Below, piece after piece: positions 2,503-22,501 of a DNA stretch of 23,022 bases. The stretch spans positions 1 through 23,022 of the IMG/VR virus record IMGVR_UViG_2671180821_000008. One strand, written 5' to 3'. The translations under genes were made by a program, and so were the position numbers. The DNA is from a virus (lineage: Duplodnaviria > Heunggongvirae > Uroviricota > Caudoviricetes). The first letter of the stretch is position 1. Every line of letters starts with the position of its first letter. The notes under the pieces were generated by a model. That model was given only the letters and a program-made list of their open reading frames with translations, did no database searches and had not been told where the DNA came from.

Positions 2503-3285
2503 TTATGCTGCCCTTTTCATTGCGAATGGAACGCGAACAAACACGATCTCTTTATAGCAGCGGCAGTTTGGCAGCTCGCCCGCGTGGCCGGTCATGCCGT
2601 CCAAAGTTGGAGGTGAATCCCAGCGGACGAATTTACCTTTCATGTGATCGTGGGAATCTCGGACATCGCCATCATCGGCTGTACGCCAAATATAACCATC
2701 CGAGCCAATAGCTATCGCTCGGGCCATATCCAGCGCGCCCGTTGCTCTTCCCAGTTCCGTTCGGGCAATCAGATCGGCCCTAGACTTAGCAACATCGCCG
2801 GTAGATGCAATCTCTTTAGCAAACTGCTCCGCCCGACCACCGGTGACAACAGCCTCTATCGCTTTGTTCTGGATGTCGTACACCCTGTCTGCGGCCTCGA
2901 GAGGCAGAGATTTGATGTACTTGACCTGTTCGGCGATGATGGATTGCATCACCTGGCCCACAGGAGCGCTTTCCACAAGATTGCGGAGCTCGCGACTGAT
3001 GTTCTTGCTGTGTTGCCGCCAAACTTTCTCGTTCTGCCGGGTTAGGTCCGCAGTAAAGTTTTCCGCGACCTTTGTCGCCCAGGGGGTGATGATTTCACTG
3101 TAACGCTCCAGCGCCGCAATAATTTCCGTGATACTGTCATTTGAACCATCGTAGCGACCATTTACGATGTCTCCGACCGCCCTCGCTATCCTGCGTAGGC
3201 TGGTTCGATACCGGATTTCCGCCTGACGGCTCCTGCGGTTCGTCATCAGGTTCGCCGATGCCGGGCGGCGCTTCATCTTCGGCAT
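2503..3285 (-). CDS. phage head morphogenesis protein (Mu F / SPP1 gp7 family)
   Basis: 260-aa ORF immediately after the portal gene; C-terminal ...DSHDHMKGKFVRWDSPP...NCRC motif region resembles Mu F-like minor head proteins. ORF start overlaps the portal 3' end by 149 nt, so the true start may be internal. Confidence 0.6.
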   Translation of the reverse strand: MPKMKRRPASANLMTNRRSRQAEIRYRTSLRRIARAVGDIVNGRYDGSNDSITEIIAALERYSEIITPWATKVAENFTADLTRQNEKVWRQHSKNISRELRNLVESAPVGQVMQSIIAEQVKYIKSLPLEAADRVYDIQNKAIEAVVTGGRAEQFAKEIASTGDVAKSRADLIARTELGRATGALDMARAIAIGSDGYIWRTADDGDVRDSHDHMKGKFVRWDSPPTLDGMTGHAGELPNCRCYKEIVFVRVPFAMKRAA

Positions 3286-4603
3286 TCTCGATGTCCTCGT
3301 CGGTAATGGATGCCCCGATGCCGGTTACGTCAGAATTTTCTCGCAAATCAGTCATAGCGGCTTTCAGTGTCATCAGACCATCACCCAGCGCCGTACTGAT
3401 TGCGTTGGTGGTGTTTAACGCCACCGTTGAGCGATCGACATCAGACATTTGCCAGAGCGGGTTAAACTCAAACGTGAAATCGTCCGGCAGCGGCTTGCCA
3501 AGTTCCGAACGATGCATGATGTCCAGTATCCGCCGCACCGGAAGACGTAAACGCCTCTCCTGCAACGAACTGATGCGATCGTAATAGTTGGCAAGGTCTG
3601 CATCACCGGTAGAAAATCCTTTCGGGGACTGTCCGAACAACCGCACCAGTGGGATACCAACAGCGCCACTAATCTGTTCTACAAACTGCGAAAGGATGTC
3701 ATCCAGACCACTGAAGCTGTACTGATGGGTTTCAAACTTATCCCGCGAGTCCATGAGCGTCATGCCTTCATTACTCTGGAACTGTCGAATCAGGTCGATA
3801 TTCTTCAGCAACGCTTCATACGCAGGACCACCAAGTGCGATAAGCTCGCGTAGCTTCTCCACGCTGTAGGTACGCAAATGCGCCTTGTAGACCAGCTGCG
3901 CCGCGCCGACAGTAGCGCTGTCGAACGCGGTAAGACGATCCCAGATACGCTCTACAACCGACATTCCCCATTCGTTCTCGGTCATCTTCTGCTGAAATGG
4001 CAACGTGACGCCATCAAAGCGAATCAGGCGACTGTGATGAATGCGCCAGGCAGGAATTCCCGTTGCTGTGGTCACCACATCGTAAAACTCAGGTTTACCC
4101 AGGTCCGGCCCCATATCTTTAATGCGGCGGGTCAGTGCCGGGTCGACCATCCAGCGGTCGAGCGGGAGAATCCCCTTAAACTTGCCCTTACCGATGGTTT
4201 CGGGTCGCAGCGGGGTCATTGGTGCCTACCCCTCAATCATGATGAAACCCACCGCGCCGCCGTAGAGGCGCGACCATTTCAGCACGTCATTCAGCGCATC
4301 CCAGATTTGCAACTCATCCAGTTGTGATTCGAGAATGCCACGATCTTTTGCATCAATTTCCGAAGTGATGCGAATGCCTTTGCGGGTCATATCATCCGGG
4401 ATAGCATCGACTGCTTCGCCGATGATCTAGGATGAACGATAGGACCATTCCACCAGCATGCGGTTACGACTGGTGAAATTAGCCCGGTAGGTGGATGCTG
4501 AGTGCTGGTTAGGTGTCTGCATCCCTACGCGGGCAATAAAATTCTCATAACCATCAGCTGTGGCCTGCACAGTTCGCCGCAGGGCTTGTTTGTTTCGTGC
4601 CAT
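3137..4603 (-). pseudogene. portal protein gene interrupted by two in-frame amber codons (intact C-terminal ORF 3137..4219)
   Basis: ATG at 4603..4601 overlaps the large-terminase stop (ATGA). The frame stays open and protein-like (MARNKQALRR...EWSYRSS * IIGEAVDAIPDDMTRKGIRITSEI...GFIMIEG * APMTPLRPE...) apart from TAG at 4429..4427 and TAG at 4228..4226; no frameshift. Position between terminase and Mu F-like gene indicates portal. Confidence 0.65.
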
Positions 4604-6114
4604 CAGGCCTGTCTCCCCAGCTGTTCCCAGATATCCAGCGATGTATCGATTGGCGCGAAGGCCATAATGAATGCATCAGCAACGTTTGGTGACGGTATCT
4701 CGCGTTTTGCGAGGTCTTTTTTACTTTCGACCATCACACGTCCGTTACGGTCGAAATCACGATGAGGTGTTGTCAGTTCCAGTTTCAGCTTTTCAAGCAA
4801 CGGACAACGAGAATCTATGCTGATCAGCTCATCCACAGGATACTGTTCTCCGTTGTTAATGGCGTTAAACGTATTTCTGAAACGGTCAGCCACCAGCCAC
4901 CATGCCTGAGCCTTAAGATTTGCGAAAAAGTCTTTGTTGGGGATGCCGTTGTACTCGTCATCTGGCTCATGCACACCAGCACCGGCGTTAAACCTCTGGT
5001 AATTCACACGTCGCGCGTATGCGTTCTCGCTCTTCCGGTCAGCGTTAATTTCAGAGAATTTAGCACCGGCAGACGCACCAACACCGATAGAGTCGTAAAC
5101 AATATCTGCTTCACGCTCCAGCGCCGCCTGATAAGTACGCTGGCAGCTCTTCAGTAATTCATCTTCTTTGGCCTTCCATTCGTCGGCCCAGAAAACAACG
5201 GATCCGTGACGGTAAACGTTAGCGCACTTATCTGTACCACTGTCAGCCACGTCAAAGCCAATACGCTTTCTTCCACTGGGTTCGAAATTTAACGTTTTGT
5301 GCGCATCCACTGCGGCTTCTATCCAAGACAGTTTGATGATTGCCGCATCATCATCAGACTCCGGAACGCCCTCATACACATGTTTAAAACCATCCGGATC
5401 ACGGCGTCGCGCCGCGTCGATAACCTTAAGCATGGTGTCAGACAGAAACGGATTTTCGTCATAGTTAATTTTGCGGATGAGAGTGCCTTCGGGCGGATCA
5501 ACAACGAAGTTGCGCCAGACGAAATCAGTAACAAGTCCGGGGTTGAATATGAACCAGCATTCCGAACCCTCTTTACGGATCGTTGGCTCCAGAATTTTCC
5601 ACTGGTATTCCGTCAGTGCGTGGGCTTCTTCCAGCCACAACACATCGATCCCCTCCAGTGACTTAATTTCTTCGATGTTGCGCCATAATCCATAAAAAAC
5701 AAATTCCGAGCCAGTAACCCGGTTAATGATTTTGTTGTTCAGAATACGGAAACGGTGCCGCAGACCAAACCTGTCTATCTGAATTTTGAGCAGGGTATAC
5801 ACCGACTCTTCGATTTTATTCTGGATCTGACGGGCACAACAAAAACGCAGGGTGTATTTATTCGACAGAAATATGGCAATGCCAGCGGCATCCCATGATT
5901 TTGACGATGACCGACCACCATAAAGCACTTTGTTACGTGCCCGCATAGTCCAGAAACTACGTAAAGCCGGATTCAGCGTCGGTTTGGATGTCAGAGTAGA
6001 AGTCATTGAGGTCACGCTCTCCATTGCCATCATCAATACCTGCATCACGGCGAAGACGATCAGCCTCCAGAGACACCTTATCAGTGGCGGCCTTGCGGTA
6101 GGCTGTATCAGCAA
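4603..6114 (-). CDS. terminase large subunit (PBSX/Terminase_3-like, headful-type)
   Basis: 503-aa ORF with ...RARNKVLYGGRSSSKSWDAAG... (deviant Walker A) and a nuclease-like C-terminal half. ORF start overlaps the small terminase gene by 158 nt; internal ATGs at 6033 (AGGT SD) or 6006 are more likely true starts. Confidence 0.85.
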   Translation of the reverse strand: MLIQPTARPPLIRCLWRLIVFAVMQVLMMAMESVTSMTSTLTSKPTLNPALRSFWTMRARNKVLYGGRSSSKSWDAAGIAIFLSNKYTLRFCCARQIQNKIEESVYTLLKIQIDRFGLRHRFRILNNKIINRVTGSEFVFYGLWRNIEEIKSLEGIDVLWLEEAHALTEYQWKILEPTIRKEGSECWFIFNPGLVTDFVWRNFVVDPPEGTLIRKINYDENPFLSDTMLKVIDAARRRDPDGFKHVYEGVPESDDDAAIIKLSWIEAAVDAHKTLNFEPSGRKRIGFDVADSGTDKCANVYRHGSVVFWADEWKAKEDELLKSCQRTYQAALEREADIVYDSIGVGASAGAKFSEINADRKSENAYARRVNYQRFNAGAGVHEPDDEYNGIPNKDFFANLKAQAWWLVADRFRNTFNAINNGEQYPVDELISIDSRCPLLEKLKLELTTPHRDFDRNGRVMVESKKDLAKREIPSPNVADAFIMAFAPIDTSLDIWEQLGRQA

Positions 6115-6721
6115 ATATTTTTCCTACCGTCGCAAGCGTGCCAACGATGGACTCAATACGAACTGTATTGCGCATCATTGCTTTCTCGGCGGCGCTGATA
6201 TTTTCAATCAGCATCTTCCTTTCCTGGTCCCCATTAGCATCTTCCAGCGACACCAACCACCGACCAATATTCTCTGCAGCGACAAGGTTGTTAGCACGAA
6301 GGCGAAATAATTCGTCCTCGAGCGTCAACGCTTTAGCGTCCTCTATCACCTCATCTTTGAGCAGAAGGCGACGGGCATAACCACCGTGTTTTAATGCCTG
6401 CTGGTTACCGGGTTGGAATGGGTTAGTCGGGGGATCGGTACGCATTCCGCGTATCGGTTTCGTATCCGGTGTAGATTCTGTTTTTAGTTGCGTACTTTTT
6501 TGTGTAAGGCCAGTAATGGCAGGCTTTCTGCTGGTACGCACTTTCCTTTTTTGCGTACCATTTTTGCAAACCTGCGTACCGCCACTGCGTGCCCAACCAA
6601 GCTTTTTGGCCCTCTTCCTGATAGCCCCTTCTGTAACGCCGTATTTCTCGCCTATATCACGGAGGCTAAGGACTCCGGCCCGGTATGCCGATTCGATGGC
6701 CTCCCAGTCCGGTTTTGCCAT
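5957..6721 (-). CDS. terminase small subunit
   Basis: 254-aa ORF directly upstream of the large terminase; N-terminal HTH-like segment (LSLRDIGEKYGVTEGAIRKRAKKLGW) and basic region; TAG stop. Confidence 0.6.
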   Translation of the reverse strand: MAKPDWEAIESAYRAGVLSLRDIGEKYGVTEGAIRKRAKKLGWARSGGTQVCKNGTQKRKVRTSRKPAITGLTQKSTQLKTESTPDTKPIRGMRTDPPTNPFQPGNQQALKHGGYARRLLLKDEVIEDAKALTLEDELFRLRANNLVAAENIGRWLVSLEDANGDQERKMLIENISAAEKAMMRNTVRIESIVGTLATVGKIFADTAYRKAATDKVSLEADRLRRDAGIDDGNGERDLNDFYSDIQTDAESGFT

Positions 6722-6918
6722 GATTATGCTTCCTGTGATTTACTGTTATCGCTGCCTGTCACAATAGGTTGCTTTAATTCTTCCTCATCACTCACTCCTG
6801 CGACGCTCCGTGGCAGGGCCCCCCACAGGAGTACCTTGTAAATGTAAGGTGTTTAAGCCTAAATTAAGTCGTATCACGGTTAAATAGCAAAGAAAAATTC
6901 ACAGAAGGAAAGACATTG

Positions 6919-7428
6919 ATGGAGTGGATAAATGCTTTGATGAACTATTTTGTACTTCATCCATATCGCCTATGGGGGCTTCTTTTTATAATAGCGTTCA
7001 CAAAATCCACTTTACTCATTTCGGCGATATTGCCACCAGCATCAATTATGATGGCCACTGTAATTACAGTCAGCAAGACGACTCTTTCACCATGGGAAGC
7101 TGGAATCACGGTCATGAGTGGCGCATGGTGCGGTACTATCGTTAATTACCATCTTGGTATAATAATTGGGCATATCCCTCAACTTGCATGTATAATATCA
7201 AGCCGTTCCAATACAATAGAACGGGTTCGCCTTCAGTTGCAAAATAACTCTGTGTCAATACTTTTCACTTCGCGCTTTATCGCCGTGCTGCGTTATATTG
7301 CTCCTTTGGTGGCAGGAATGTTGCAACTTCATCCAGTGAAAGTGTATACAGTGAGTCTGATTTCAGCTGCTAGCTGGTCAGCACTTTATGTTGGTAGTTT
7401 TAGCTTCGTGTTGCCTTTTTTTAGCTAA
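6919..7428 (+). CDS. YqaA/DedA-superfamily-like inner membrane protein (phage moron)
   Basis: About 169 aa, multi-pass hydrophobic; motifs ...SGAWCGTIVNYHLGIIIGH... and ...FTSRFIAVLRYIAPLVAGMLQL... follow the pattern I recall for E. coli YqaA. GAAGGAAAG SD 8 nt before ATG 6919. Opposite strand to the flanking phage genes, in a visibly AT-rich segment. Confidence 0.5.
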   Translation: MEWINALMNYFVLHPYRLWGLLFIIAFTKSTLLISAILPPASIMMATVITVSKTTLSPWEAGITVMSGAWCGTIVNYHLGIIIGHIPQLACIISSRSNTIERVRLQLQNNSVSILFTSRFIAVLRYIAPLVAGMLQLHPVKVYTVSLISAASWSALYVGSFSFVLPFFS

Positions 7429-7516
7429 ACTGCCCATAAAAAGCTCTTGCGAATCCAGCTTCCCCCATTCCTCTGACAACAGAATCTGATTTGAAGGATA
7501 ATGAGTAAAATTACCG

Positions 7517-7987
7517 CTACCCCCCAAGGCATTGGATCCTGATGTACTCCTGAAGCATTCTCAATGCTGTCTGGTCGCTGATGATTCCGTCCCGGATACC
7601 GAGAACGTTTCGTCCAGCAACTGGAGAGAGTTCGACGGTGGCATCATTGCCCATGCCGGAGGCGCTGGAGGTTTCGGCTGAGGATGGCACAGGGCATTTT
7701 CCTTTGACGAGCACCCGACCACCATTATCAAGCTTGCGCCGAAGAGCATCATTTTCAGCTTTCGCATCAGCTAACTCCTTCGTGTATTTAGCATCGAGTG
7801 CATCAGCATCACGCTGGCGCTGCTGCATGTCAGTAATGGTTGCGTTCGCCAGCTTCAGTTCTCTTGCGTTTTTGTCGCGCTGCTCTTTGTAGGTAATGGC
7901 GTTATCACGGTAATGATTAACAGCCCATGACAGGCGGACGATGATGCAGATAACCAGAGCGGAGATAATCGCGGTGACTCTGCTCAT
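7517..7987 (-). CDS. Rz: Rz i-spanin
   Basis: [49 protein letters not shown]... closely matches lambda Rz N-terminus; ATG overlaps the endolysin stop (ATGA). Confidence 0.85.
7561..7767 (-). CDS. Rz1: Rz1 o-spanin lipoprotein, embedded in the +1 frame of Rz
   Basis: [21 protein letters not shown]... with lipobox VVGC and proline-rich segment [11 protein letters not shown], like lambda Rz1. Confidence 0.75.
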
Positions 7988-8481
7988 TGCTGCCCCCACA
8001 AACAGACTTCACGCTCAATCTCACGACGGGTCATCAGCCCTTTCCATTGCTTACCGCCAGCATATGTCCAGCGACATAGCTGGTCACATGCGCCTTTGAT
8101 ATAGCCCTGGTTTATTTTGCGAAGAAGCGTCGATGTTCTGAAATTGCCAGCGCCCACGTTGTAAACGAACGAGTAAAGAGCGCCGCGCGTTGTTTCCGGT
8201 ATATCGACTTTGATGTACGGGTTAATTTGTCTGGCGACAGTGGCAAGGTCTTTATTCAGGAGAGCTTTGCATTCTGCTTCGGTATACGTTTTACCAGGCA
8301 TGATGTCTTTTCCGGTGTGTCCGTGACATACAGTCCATACACCAATGATATCTTTGTATAGTATGTAGCTGACACCTTCCAGACCATCGTTACCACCTGG
8401 GCCAGTGATTAACACAGATGCTATAGCAACAGCCCCGCCACCAATAGCAACTGCAACAGCCTTGCGTAATGATGGCGACAT
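7984..8481 (-). CDS. R: SAR endolysin (phage 21 R-type lysozyme)
   Basis: 165-aa [42 protein letters not shown]... with N-terminal signal-anchor-release segment and lysozyme core; near-identical to phage 21 R as recalled. Confidence 0.9.
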
Positions 8482-8594
8482 TATTCACCTCTCGCAGCCT
8501 TACTAGACTGGCCCCCTGAATCTCCAGACAACCAGTATCACTTAAATAAGTGATAGTCTTAATACTAGTTTTTAGACTAGTCATTGGAGTACAG

Positions 8595-8960
8595 ATGATT
8601 GATGTCTTAGGGCCGGAGAAACGCAGACGGCGTACCACACAGGAAAAGATCGCAATTGTTCAGCAGAGCTTTGAACCGGGGATGACGGTCTCCCTCGTTG
8701 CCCGGCAACATGGTGTAGCAGCCAGCCAGTTATTTCTCTGGCGTAAGCAATACCAGGAAGGAAGTCTTACTGCTGTGGCCGCCGGAGAACAGGTTGTTCC
8801 TGCCTCTGAACTTGCTGCCGCCATGAAGCAGATTAAAGAACTCCAGCGCCTGCTCGGCAAGAAAACGATGGAAAATGAACTCCTCAAAGAAGCCGTTGAA
8901 TATGGACGGGCAAAAAAGTGGATAGCGCACGCGCCCTTATTGCCCGGGGATGGGGAGTAA
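8595..8960 (+). CDS. insC: IS2 OrfA (InsC)
   Basis: [56 protein letters not shown]...; recognised IS2 InsC. Confidence 0.88.
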
Positions 8961-9823
8961 GCTTAGTCAGCCGTTGTCTCCGGGTGTCGCGTGCGCAGTT
9001 GCACGTCATTCTCAGACGAACCGATGACTGGATGGATGGCCGCCGCAGTCGTCACACTGATGATACGGATGTGCTTCTCCGTATACACCATGTTATCGGA
9101 GAGCTGCCCACGTATGGTTATCGTCGGGTATGGGCGCTGCTTCGCAGACAGGCAGAACTTGATGGTATGCCTGCGATCAATGCCAAACGTGTTTACCGGA
9201 TCATGCGCCAGAATGCGCTGTTGCTTGAGCGAAAACCTGCTGTACCGCCATCGAAACGGGCACATACAGGCAGAGTGGCCGTGAAAGAAAGCAATCAGCG
9301 ATGGTGCTCTGACGGGTTCGAGTTCTGCTGTGATAACGGAGAGAGACTGCGTGTCACGTTCGCGCTGGACTGCTGTGATCGTGAGGCACTGCACTGGGCG
9401 GTGACTACCGGCGGCTTCAACAGTGAAACAGTACAGGACGTCATGCTGGGAGCGGTGGAACGCCGCTTCGGCAACGATCTTCCGTCGTCTCCAGTGGAGT
9501 GGCTGACGGATAATGGTTCATGCTACCGGGCTAATGAAACACGCCAGTTCGCCCGGATGTTGGGACTTGAACCGAAGAACACGGCGGTGCGGAGTCCGGA
9601 GAGTAACGGAATAGCAGAGAGCTTCGTGAAAACGATAAAGCGTGACTACATCAGTATCATGCCCAAACCAGACGGGTTAACGGCAGCAAAGAACCTTGCA
9701 GAGGCGTTCGAGCATTATAACGAATGGCATCCGCATAGTGCGCTGGGTTATCGCTCGCCACGGGAATATCTGCGGCAGCGGGCTTGTAATGGGTTAAGTG
9801 ATAACAGATGTCTGGAAATATAG
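8918..9823 (+). CDS. insD: IS2 OrfB (InsD) transposase catalytic domain
   Basis: 301-aa ORF with DDE-type integrase fold (…WCSDGFEF…DNGSCY…) overlapping insC in the -1 frame. Confidence 0.88.
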
Positions 9824-9834
9824 GGGCAAATCCA

Positions 9835-19349: not shown

Positions 19350-20036
19350 ATGACCCCAATAAACATATTTATGACAGTTGCTGATTTCAAACGGCCCAAA
19401 TTGGAGCTCCCAAACGGGGCAAACAAACTACTACTGCACTCTTGCTGTGCTCCATGTTCCGGTGAGGTGATGGAGGCGCTTCAGGCCTCGGGAATCGACT
19501 ACACCATCTTTTTCTACAACCCGAACATTCATCCTCAGAAAGAGTATTTAATTCGTAAGGATGAGAATATTCGCTTTGCTGAACAACACGGCGTGCCGTT
19601 TATTGATGCTGATTACGACACAGACAACTGGTTTGAACGAGCCAAAGGAATGGAATGGGAGCCCGAACGAGGGATCCGTTGCACCATGTGTTTTGACATG
19701 CGTTTTGAGCGGACAGCGCTGTACGCCGCTGAAAATGGTTTCAGTGTGATCAGCAGTTCACTGGGCATTTCACGCTGGAAAAATATGCAGCAGGTTAACG
19801 ACTGTGGGCGGCGAGCCGTCGCGCATTATCCGGGCATGGTGTACTGGGATTATAACTGGCGCAAGCAGGGCGGCTCGTCCCGTATGATTGAAATCAGCAA
19901 GCGCGAAAAATTCTATCAGCAGGAATATTGTGGCTGTGTGTATTCTCTGCGCGATACCAATCTACACCGCAAATCTCAGGGACGCCCTCTTATCAAAATT
20001 GGTCAACTCCACTACGGTAAAGAAGAGAAGGAGTGA
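19350..20036 (+). CDS. queH: QueH-like epoxyqueuosine reductase (DUF208 family)
   Basis: Motifs [40 protein letters not shown] and C-terminal EYCGCVYS match the QueH/DUF208 signature as I recall it; start codon uncertain (19350 or 19371). Confidence 0.6.
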
Positions 20037-21344: not shown

Positions 21345-22163
21345 TTAAGCAGCCATCTGATGATATTTTTCCCTGAAGGCTGCCGGGGAGATATTCCCCA
21401 GACGAGAGTGACGACGCTGACGATTGTAGAAAATCTCAATGTATTCCCGTATTACTGAGATGGCTTCATCCCGGTTATTAAAACGATAGTGGCTCAGGCT
21501 CTCATTTTTCAGCGTTCCCCAGAAGCTTTCCATCGGAGCGTTGTCGTAACAGTTACCTTTACGCGACATTGATGTTTTCAGACCAGACTGCTCCTGTATG
21601 ACCCGGTAATCGTATGCGCAGTACTGTGAACCTCGATCAGAGTGGTGGATTAGCCCGGCAGGTGGGCGCTGGCTCCTGAGCGCCATAAACAGGGCTTTAC
21701 CTGTCAGCTCTTTTGTCATGCGCTCTCCCATGGCGTAGCCGACAATTTCGCACGTATAAACATCTTTGATGCCAGCGAGGTACAACCATCCCTCCTGTGT
21801 GGCAACATACGTCAGGTCCGCCACCCAGACCTGATTTGGTGCTGTAGGAGCGAACGTCTGGTTCAGCAGATTTGGCGCAACTGGCAGATTGTGGTTCGAG
21901 TTCGTAGTCGCTCTGAACTTGCGTTTCTGCTTACAGCGTAGCCTTAGCTCCTTACGAAGACGTGCCAGTCGGTCACGACCAACGATGATGCCATTCTCTG
22001 CCAGCTCCGTCTGGAGCCGCCGGGTTCCATATGTTTCGCGAGTGCGGATATGTGCCACCTTAATCTCCAGTTTTAGCCGCTCATCACTTTGTTTTCTGTC
22101 TGAGGGTTCATGCTGTACCCAGTTGTAATAACCGCTCCTGGATACACCAAATACCTGACACAT
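21345..22163 (-). CDS. insK: IS600 OrfB (DDE transposase domain)
   Basis: 272-aa ORF identical in translation to the 15701-16519 copy. Confidence 0.88.
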   Translation of the reverse strand: MCQVFGVSRSGYYNWVQHEPSDRKQSDERLKLEIKVAHIRTRETYGTRRLQTELAENGIIVGRDRLARLRKELRLRCKQKRKFRATTNSNHNLPVAPNLLNQTFAPTAPNQVWVADLTYVATQEGWLYLAGIKDVYTCEIVGYAMGERMTKELTGKALFMALRSQRPPAGLIHHSDRGSQYCAYDYRVIQEQSGLKTSMSRKGNCYDNAPMESFWGTLKNESLSHYRFNNRDEAISVIREYIEIFYNRQRRHSRLGNISPAAFREKYHQMAA

Positions 22164-22198
22164 CGCTTCAATGGGAAATTGTTGTCGCCATTGTTCGA

Positions 22199-22501
22199 TT
22201 AACGCGTATTTTTCAGCGACTCCTGTGCAAAATACGCTGTTGCTTTTTTTAATATATCTCGCTCAAGGCGAGCTTCATTTAACGCCTTACGCAGTTGCAG
22301 AATTTCAGATTCCAGTTCAGCCACCGTGCGGGAACCAGGAGTACCGAGCCCTTTTCTGGCGGCGGTAACCCATTGTCCTAAAGTGCCTTCAGGAAGAGAT
22401 AATCGGGAAGCGCCTTCACTGATCGAAAGTTGATTTTCAGGAACCGTTCTGACAGCTTCGGCTTTGAACTCTTTAGAGTAACGTTGGGTTTTTCTGCTCA
22501 T
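22199..22501 (-). CDS. insJ: IS600 OrfA (L20P variant)
   Basis: 100-aa ORF MSRKTQRYSKEFKAEAVRTVPENQLS... Confidence 0.88.
   Translation of the reverse strand: MSRKTQRYSKEFKAEAVRTVPENQLSISEGASRLSLPEGTLGQWVTAARKGLGTPGSRTVAELESEILQLRKALNEARLERDILKKATAYFAQESLKNTR

Follow-up and report, generated by a model that had tools for sequence, protein, structure and literature searches.

The DedA superfamily of membrane proteins is divided by the scheme of Todor et al. into the branches COG0586, COG0398 and COG1238 (PMC10127716). COG0586 comprises YabI, DedA, YghB, YqjA and YohD together with UptA of Bacillus subtilis. The acidic residues of DedA proteins probably bind protons, and their arginines probably bind the phosphate of undecaprenyl phosphate (UndP) (PMC10127716). 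In UptA, R118 pairs with E32, and binding of C55-P requires R112 and R118 (PMC11474028). In YqjA, the variants D51A and R136A do not restore growth at pH 8.5, and the double mutants E39A/D51A and R130A/R136A are treated as non-functional (bioRxiv 10.64898/2026.09.20.752871). The proton-driven mechanism proposed for DedA proteins centres on this core of Glu/Asp and Arg, and the substrates of the proteins are currently being assigned. The subject of the present analysis is a DedA gene carried by a lambdoid prophage of the Shigella type in a stretch of 23,022 nucleotides (hereafter the window; positions 1 to 23,022 of the IMG/VR virus record IMGVR_UViG_2671180821_000008, Caudoviricetes). Its product belongs to a small, distinct DedA clade, in which both arginines are kept and the conserved Glu is replaced by Lys.

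The gene and its translation signal are as follows (all coordinates are those of the window unless stated otherwise).

6919..7428, + strand: open reading frame (ORF) for a predicted inner-membrane protein of the DedA/VTT family, Lys-variant clade; 169 aa from the ATG, 170 aa from a TTG at 6916
6905..6909, + strand: Shine-Dalgarno sequence AAGGA, 9 nt 5' of the ATG

The ORF is a real gene and not a chance ORF, because its ratio of nonsynonymous to synonymous substitution rates (dN/dS) is 0.15–0.23 against the Citrobacter and Kosakonia copies (0.23 against the closest copy, which is phage-borne), and because the identical protein is found on at least 1000 public contigs, among which Shigella flexneri predominates. 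It is under purifying selection. The gene is already annotated: WP_011069285.1, the RefSeq entry for the product, is labelled "DedA family protein", with the start of the coding sequence placed at the TTG. Since the orthologs keep the ATG at 6919 and not the codon before it, the product of 169 aa is the likelier one; the orthologs also have a GGAG-type Shine-Dalgarno sequence at the position of AAGGA in the window. The product is strongly hydrophobic (grand average of hydropathy 0.87) and contains no Asp residue. A preliminary description of this DNA, made from the letters alone, had noted a multi-pass hydrophobic ORF of 169 codons with its own Shine-Dalgarno sequence, and all these features are confirmed.

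The same description had assigned the protein to a DedA/YqaA pattern, of which the DedA part stands and the YqaA part does not. The Pfam VTT domain (PF09335) matches with 52.4 bits (E 9e-14; gathering score 33.9 bits) over profile positions 3–121 of 123, and is found in all members of the clade. The phmmer ranking of the K-12 paralogs is YabI (2e-13, 25% identity), DedA (5e-11) and YqjA (1e-9), followed by YohD and YghB, and YdjX is marginal (BLASTP E 0.09). YqaA of K-12 gives no phmmer or BLASTP match at E ≤ 10. YqaA (142 aa) is likewise a short single-domain protein of the superfamily, but its branch, COG1238, combines an acidic helix 1 with a helix 2 that lacks basic residues (PMC10127716), and so shows the reverse of the residue pattern found here. 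The YqaA-like identity is therefore rejected, COG1238 lacking the helix-2 arginines that the product keeps. The scores against narrower models are far below the equivalog thresholds: 31 bits for the NCBIfam DedA equivalog (cut-off 236) and, for the UptA-type models NF052604 and NF052605, 19.9 bits (cut-off 250) and 16.3 bits (cut-off 300), respectively. By these comparisons, the product is an inner-membrane DedA/VTT protein in its minimal, single-domain form; it falls in the COG0586-like branch, and YabI is its nearest K-12 paralog.

The predicted structure is a multi-pass one. The AlphaFold2 (AF2) model built on a 66-sequence alignment has a predicted local distance difference test score (pLDDT) of 80.9 and a predicted template modelling score of 0.76; a 20-sequence alignment gave an unusable model (pLDDT 54.5) and was replaced. 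The model is all-helical, with two helix-break-helix hairpins (residues 15–52 and 111–134) and two long helices (58–84 and 139–168), and there is no additional C-terminal helix beyond the core domain; such hairpins and long helices would be expected of a DedA core. The PDB contains no solved DedA structure, and accordingly it gave no match by sequence or by fold. The top viral fold matches are giant-virus 'SNARE associated' proteins with weak E-values.

The distinctness of the clade is seen in a profile search of 1.84 billion representative proteins, in which only 12 fall below 1e-30 and the next scores are at about 1e-19 to 1e-21. The residues that separate the clade from the neighbouring DedA hits, and those that the two share, are listed below.

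Position 29 (E39 of YqjA/YghB; tip of reentrant helix 1): Lys in 40/40 of the clade, Glu in 129/129 of the neighbouring hits
Position 73 (Asp of 'GD'): Ser or Thr in 33/33 of the clade, Asp in 120/129 of the neighbouring hits
Position 40 (hairpin 1): Pro (PP) in the clade, Gly (PG) in the neighbouring hits
Positions 122–123 (hairpin 2): Ala-Val in the clade, Gly-Pro in the neighbouring hits
Positions 119 and 125 (R130 and R136; reentrant helix 2): Arg kept in the clade (27/30 and 29/29 rows), Arg in the neighbouring hits

Every clade-defining residue is present in the copy of the window. The acidic residues of reentrant helix 1 by which COG0586 is recognized (E39, D51) are missing from the product, the position equivalent to D51 being Ala, and the two arginines of reentrant helix 2 align with R119 and R125. 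Considering the published roles of these residues, it appears from K29, Ser/Thr73 and Arg119/125 that the clade has kept the phosphate-binding half of the COG0586 signature and has lost the proton-binding half, partly with reversal of charge.

In other respects the product resembles COG0586, with which it shares the VTT domain, the positions P39, P129, G133 and W153, and a Ser equivalent to S52 of YqjA. It differs not only in the Lys for E39, the Ser/Thr for the 'GD' Asp, PP for PG and AV for GP, but also in its length of 169 aa, without a helix after the core, as against 192–254 aa for COG0586 members. With COG0398 (YdjX/YdjZ and the eukaryotic scramblases TMEM41B and VMP1) it shares the lack of proton-binding carboxylates in reentrant helix 1, which in that branch has been read as a sign of scramblase-type action not driven by the proton-motive force (PMC10127716). 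The similarity to COG0398 is marginal, however, and COG0398 lacks one or both of the arginines that the clade keeps. Many of the nearest relatives outside the clade are 530–740 aa long, and the three that were checked (P0040, P0041 and P0043) consist of an N-terminal DedA domain fused to PAP2 and/or LssY_C. Such DedA-PAP2(-LssY_C) fusions tie this branch to lipid phosphates.

The gene is a true phage moron, because it has been added between two genes that stand side by side in sister prophages and because its composition is deviant. The elements concerned are the following.

6724..7472, no strand: segment of about 0.75 kb that is missing in sister prophages, delimited by the boundaries of identity to sister and DLP12-like prophages
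5957–6721, - strand: left flank, small-terminase-like gene (terS) with a helix-turn-helix N-terminus, overlapping the large terminase gene
7517–7999, - strand: right flank, Rz i-spanin gene
6844..7438, + strand: putative core transferable module (promoter, 5' untranslated region and ORF), with 77–82% DNA identity to the copies of Citrobacter youngae, C. meridianamericanus (L007) and the contig L105

The flanking phage genes are all on the - strand, opposite to the DedA ORF. In windows of 300 nt, the guanine plus cytosine content (GC) is 41–44% across 6750–7500 and 48–53% to either side, as the preliminary description had perceived by eye in calling the segment AT-rich. The ORF itself has a GC of 42.0% and a GC at third codon positions (GC3) of 38.5%, compared with a GC3 of 46–57% in the neighbouring genes and a GC of 50.6% in the whole window. 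The identity to the sister prophages that share terS ends at 6723, and the identity to the DLP12-like prophages that share Rz begins at 7473. In the sisters, whose terS is 98–99% identical, the lysis genes run directly into terS and the slot is without the gene; the insertion suspected earlier is thus genuine. A related terS is present in 209 of 5426 complete E. coli genomes, and the DedA gene in only six, being absent from 5420. The six carriers (e.g., NZ_CP119441.1, an O121 strain) may be enteroinvasive E. coli (EIEC) or Shigella-like; O121 is an EIEC serogroup.

The slot between Rz and the terminase genes is one in which DLP12-like prophages carry other genes on the opposite strand, and in lambda it is occupied by bor. 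With bor and the DLP12 cargo the DedA gene shares its place as a lone opposite-strand gene between Rz/Rz1 and terminase, its deviant composition and its absence from sister prophages. Its product, on the other hand, has no relation to Bor, which is a lipoprotein of the outer membrane; no terminator is found, and the gene has a predicted activator-dependent promoter, which would have been captured with it from a chromosomal locus. An unrelated lambdoid prophage of Citrobacter youngae, with lysis genes (GH19, holin_8) and terminase genes (DUF1441/GpA) of other kinds, has a 78%-identical copy in the same slot and orientation. The copies other than the phage-borne ones are chromosomal. The DNA homology between copies extends from 6844/6849 to approximately 7438, that is, from the conserved promoter motif to about 10 nt past the stop codon; the Kosakonia copy aligns from 6914 only, without the promoter. 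Among 50,697 records of deposited phages, megablast gives no close homolog, and tblastn gives only DedA genes of 24–30% identity in doubtful records.

The 73%-identical copy of L105, a contig listed as viral in IMG/VR, is no evidence of a third capture by a phage, since the gene is not within the Mu-like prophage of that contig but immediately beyond its repressor end. On that contig it is situated between this end (MuA, MuB and the Mu repressor; contig positions 1145–5101) and an island with SRAP, SMEK and DarT/Macro (DarTG-like) genes (8424–12316). The two junction pieces of the window, 6724–6843 and 7439–7472, are without a detectable relative in the sister prophages or the Citrobacter copies, and the left one contains a GC-rich inverted repeat (CTCCTG...CAGGAG, approximately 6795–6832). 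The 42 nt at the 5' end of terS (6682–6723) match unannotated places in many E. coli genomes, BL21 and E2348/69 among them, with 95% identity.

Relatives of the gene were collected at 64 genome loci, in Shigella/E. coli, Citrobacter, Kosakonia, many Enterobacter species, Lelliottia, Hafnia, Morganella and Arsenophonus. The gene mgtE is adjacent and divergent in 27 of the 33 loci of the Enterobacter/Lelliottia group (L035–L065 and L083); in Arsenophonus it is in tandem, downstream, in five loci, and in Hafnia it is 3 kb away. An M-box riboswitch was detected by Rfam on mgtE in the two mgtE-linked loci scanned (112 and 108 bits; L022 and Arsenophonus L024). No mgtE adjoins the gene in the phage copies or in those of Citrobacter and Kosakonia.

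Published RNA-seq data are available for Enterobacter hormaechei 4236 (PMC10434160). In a colistin-resistant isolate with a deletion of mgrB, the RNA levels of MgtE (N5F16_08425), DedA (N5F16_08430) and a short-chain dehydrogenase/reductase (SDR; N5F16_08435) are raised 19.6-, 23.1- and 3.1-fold, respectively, and in an isolate resistant to CSA-13 they are raised 7.7-, 11.9- and 2.4-fold (PMC10434160). The gene order MgtE/DedA/SDR in the E. hormaechei loci of the present set is identical to that of N5F16_08425–08435, and N5F16_08430 is, from species and gene order, probably the ortholog of the clade. The link to mgtE and this PhoPQ-type induction in Enterobacter suggest that the clade is tied to polymyxin and low-Mg2+ responses. 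Other DedA proteins have likewise been tied either to the homeostasis of Mg2+ or to polymyxin resistance and the modification of lipid A: XdfA of Xanthomonas, DbcA of Burkholderia, DkcA of Klebsiella and PA4029 of Pseudomonas aeruginosa. In colistin-resistant isolates, the presumed Enterobacter ortholog ranks with the envelope genes that are induced most. These four are chromosomal and, by the cited literature, belong to COG0586 with the usual acidic residues, the comparison being one of descriptions only.

Upstream of the gene, two elements resemble a promoter activated by PhoP.

6850..6866, + strand: PhoP-box-like direct repeat TGTTTA-AGCCT-AAATTA, with 3 mismatches to (T/G)GTTTA-N5-(T/G)GTTTA
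6880..6885, + strand: -10-like hexamer TTAAAT, 13 nt past the repeat

In all 34 distinct upstream sequences examined from Enterobacter, Lelliottia and Citrobacter, a repeat of the form (T/C/G)GTT(T/G)A-N5-NATTNA (2–3 mismatches) is followed after exactly 12 nt by T(T/C)(A/T)AAT, at -62 to -70 from the ATG, and the flanking sequence is variable. In PhoP 'architecture I', a direct (T/G)GTTTA-N5-(T/G)GTTTA repeat is located 11–13 nt 5' of the -10 hexamer, and the footprinted PhoP boxes of pagC and pipD have half-sites similar to those of the ortholog repeats (PMC3335776). The geometry in the orthologs is thus predicted to be of the architecture I type, and these 34 sequences point to an activator-type promoter; the repeat of the window is the positional homolog of the better ortholog boxes. 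A second, better box is found in the mgtE-dedA intergenic region at about -103 from the ATG, in E. intestinihominis (L060; TGTTTA-GGTAT-GGTTTA, 0 mismatches) and also in two Lelliottia loci (L035, L041); it may serve mgtE or be a second activating site. The reading of TTTAAG-N5-ATTAAG (6853–6869) as a PmrA/BasR box was dropped, since the sequences of the Citrobacter and Enterobacter copies depart from it and the consensus was not confirmed in the literature. Sigma-54 and other sigma motifs were rejected by eye for wrong spacing. An RNA element in the conserved 5' region was considered and rejected, as the scan of 6600–7600 with Rfam returned nothing credible.

The reading preferred here, to which about an even chance of being correct is given, is that the gene is a moron DedA of the Lys-variant clade that was captured with a PhoPQ-linked promoter and encodes a transporter of phosphate lipids for envelope remodelling. 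The phage would have taken up a chromosomal DedA gene along with its predicted activator-dependent promoter, and in the lysogen the gene would be expressed in response to stress by low Mg2+, acid or cationic peptides. The core of K29, R119 and R125, without a carboxylate, would most likely bind a lipid with a phosphate head, either undecaprenyl phosphate or an anionic phospholipid, and the protein would move this lipid across the inner membrane without proton coupling. Such movement would support envelope remodelling under PhoPQ-inducing conditions, and the gene would be a lysogenic-conversion gene, kept by Shigella during the decay of the prophage. The substrate and the proton-independence are here suggested by the residues. 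Action on envelope lipid carriers had earlier been put forward as a property of DedA proteins at large; it is known only for members of the UptA/DedA type, and it may not be extended in that form to a protein that scores 20 against 250 bits with the UptA model and has none of the proton-binding carboxylates. A more specific version is unlikely, namely that the Lys-variant clade is a functionally new kind of DedA protein, which flips or scrambles undecaprenyl phosphate or another anionic lipid independently of protons and is induced through PhoPQ at low Mg2+, and that its gene was captured by a lambdoid phage with a PhoP-dependent promoter and now aids the resistance to cationic peptides or the intracellular fitness of S. 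flexneri and related E. coli.

Several points weigh against the preferred reading. N5F16_08430 is identified by species and gene order and not by its sequence, the substrate and the lack of proton coupling are read from residues only, and activity and transcription in Shigella are presumed. YabI, the nearest K-12 paralog, itself gave weak UndP-related activity in a published assay. The repeat of the window is the weakest of all copies, with its 3 mismatches and its spacer of 13 nt; matches of this quality occur in the window about as often as chance would have it (62 against an expected 46), and the hexamer TTAAAT is without the usual A at position 2. A simple sigma-70 scan upstream of the ORF finds no promoter, and no intrinsic terminator is found 3' of it. 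The published screen of Sf301 for PhoP boxes (≤ 2 mismatches) does not list the DedA gene, and the repeat was not found in the Kosakonia, Morganella, Hafnia and Arsenophonus copies. Because of the weak repeat and its chance-level match, the defect of the hexamer, the lack of a consensus promoter and the absence from the Sf301 list, PhoP control of the gene in Shigella is only plausible.

A rival view is that the captured promoter has decayed and that the gene is a neutral passenger, or silent, in Shigella and is kept only because the cryptic prophage is fixed. This is unlikely. It would agree with the degraded state of the prophage (the holin gene carries an insertion sequence, IS2, in its 3' end, there are a further four IS copies, and the portal gene is truncated), with the poor repeat and long spacer, with the lack of the gene in all but six of the 5426 complete E. 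coli genomes, and with the AT-rich nature of the segment, for which silencing by H-NS would be plausible. Against it stand a dN/dS of 0.23 even in the comparison with the closest copy, the survival of an unbroken, identical ORF on at least 1000 contigs beside phage genes that are disrupted, and the retention of all clade-defining residues. If the gene is inactive in Shigella, it is merely another annotated DedA paralog. The preliminary description had speculated on exclusion of superinfecting phages, and a defence against phages through an altered envelope or blocked entry of DNA would suit a slot and orientation typical of lysogenic-conversion and exclusion genes, as it would the homolog of L105 near DarTG and SMEK-type defence genes at the end of a Mu-like prophage. 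It is nevertheless very improbable, as PADLOC returns no match, the family consists for the most part of ordinary chromosomal genes that have mgtE and an SDR gene as neighbours and lie outside defence islands, and the deposited phage records contain no close homolog. The evidence suggests a role in PhoPQ or low-Mg2+ envelope stress rather than in exclusion.

Alternatively, the protein might directly aid the uptake or retention of Mg2+, perhaps as a partner of MgtE, instead of moving lipids. The synteny with an M-box-controlled mgtE across three families and in differing arrangements is consistent with this, as is the co-induction of the presumed E. hormaechei ortholog with mgtE. XdfA of Xanthomonas, for which such a direct role has been proposed, is required for growth and for Mg uptake at low Mg2+ (PMC10470534), and a link to the homeostasis of divalent cations is reported for DedA proteins of Klebsiella (PMC10846249). 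On the other hand, a core of one Lys and two Arg without a carboxylate is ill-suited to the binding of cations, the neighbouring DedA proteins are fused to PAP2 lipid phosphatases, and the phage, Citrobacter and Kosakonia copies are not beside mgtE. E. coli and Shigella are not known to have an MgtE, and a role as its partner therefore could not apply in the host of the window. An accessory of Mg2+ homeostasis is accordingly held to be improbable, and the captured, PhoPQ-linked transporter of phosphate lipids is retained as the preferred reading.

The residue signature, the mgtE/PhoPQ context and the capture by a phage with the promoter included are undescribed as far as the searched literature shows. 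The clade provides a natural test of the DedA mechanism, in that the Glu is reversed in charge, the Asp is dropped and both Arg are kept under purifying selection. The capture of the gene with its promoter into the bor slot and its retention amid decay would be a compact example of the change of a regulated host gene into a lysogenic-conversion gene.

The remaining phage genes around the slot are as follows.

4603–6114, - strand: PBSX-type large terminase gene
7561–7767, - strand: Rz1 lipoprotein ORF, embedded in Rz
7984–8481, - strand: lysozyme gene
9748–10032, - strand: P21-type holin gene

The prophage is heavily degraded, and the DedA gene is intact. IS2 (InsC/InsD-like ORFs; 8550–9823, + strand) is inserted between the lysozyme and holin genes, in the 3' end of the latter. 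The holin ORF runs into IS2 and ends in foreign residues (94 aa), and the lysis cassette is therefore probably disabled. Four further IS copies are at 10270–11466, 12067–13271, 15701–16857 and 21345–22501; one belongs to the IS110 family, and of the other three, all IS3-family members, two are near-identical. The ORF of the portal gene (3137–4219) covers only profile positions 84–355 and is N-terminally truncated. In the early region of the prophage there is also a gene for QueH, an epoxyqueuosine reductase (19350–20036, + strand), which is likewise annotated in an E. coli relative (L001) and may be another cargo gene.

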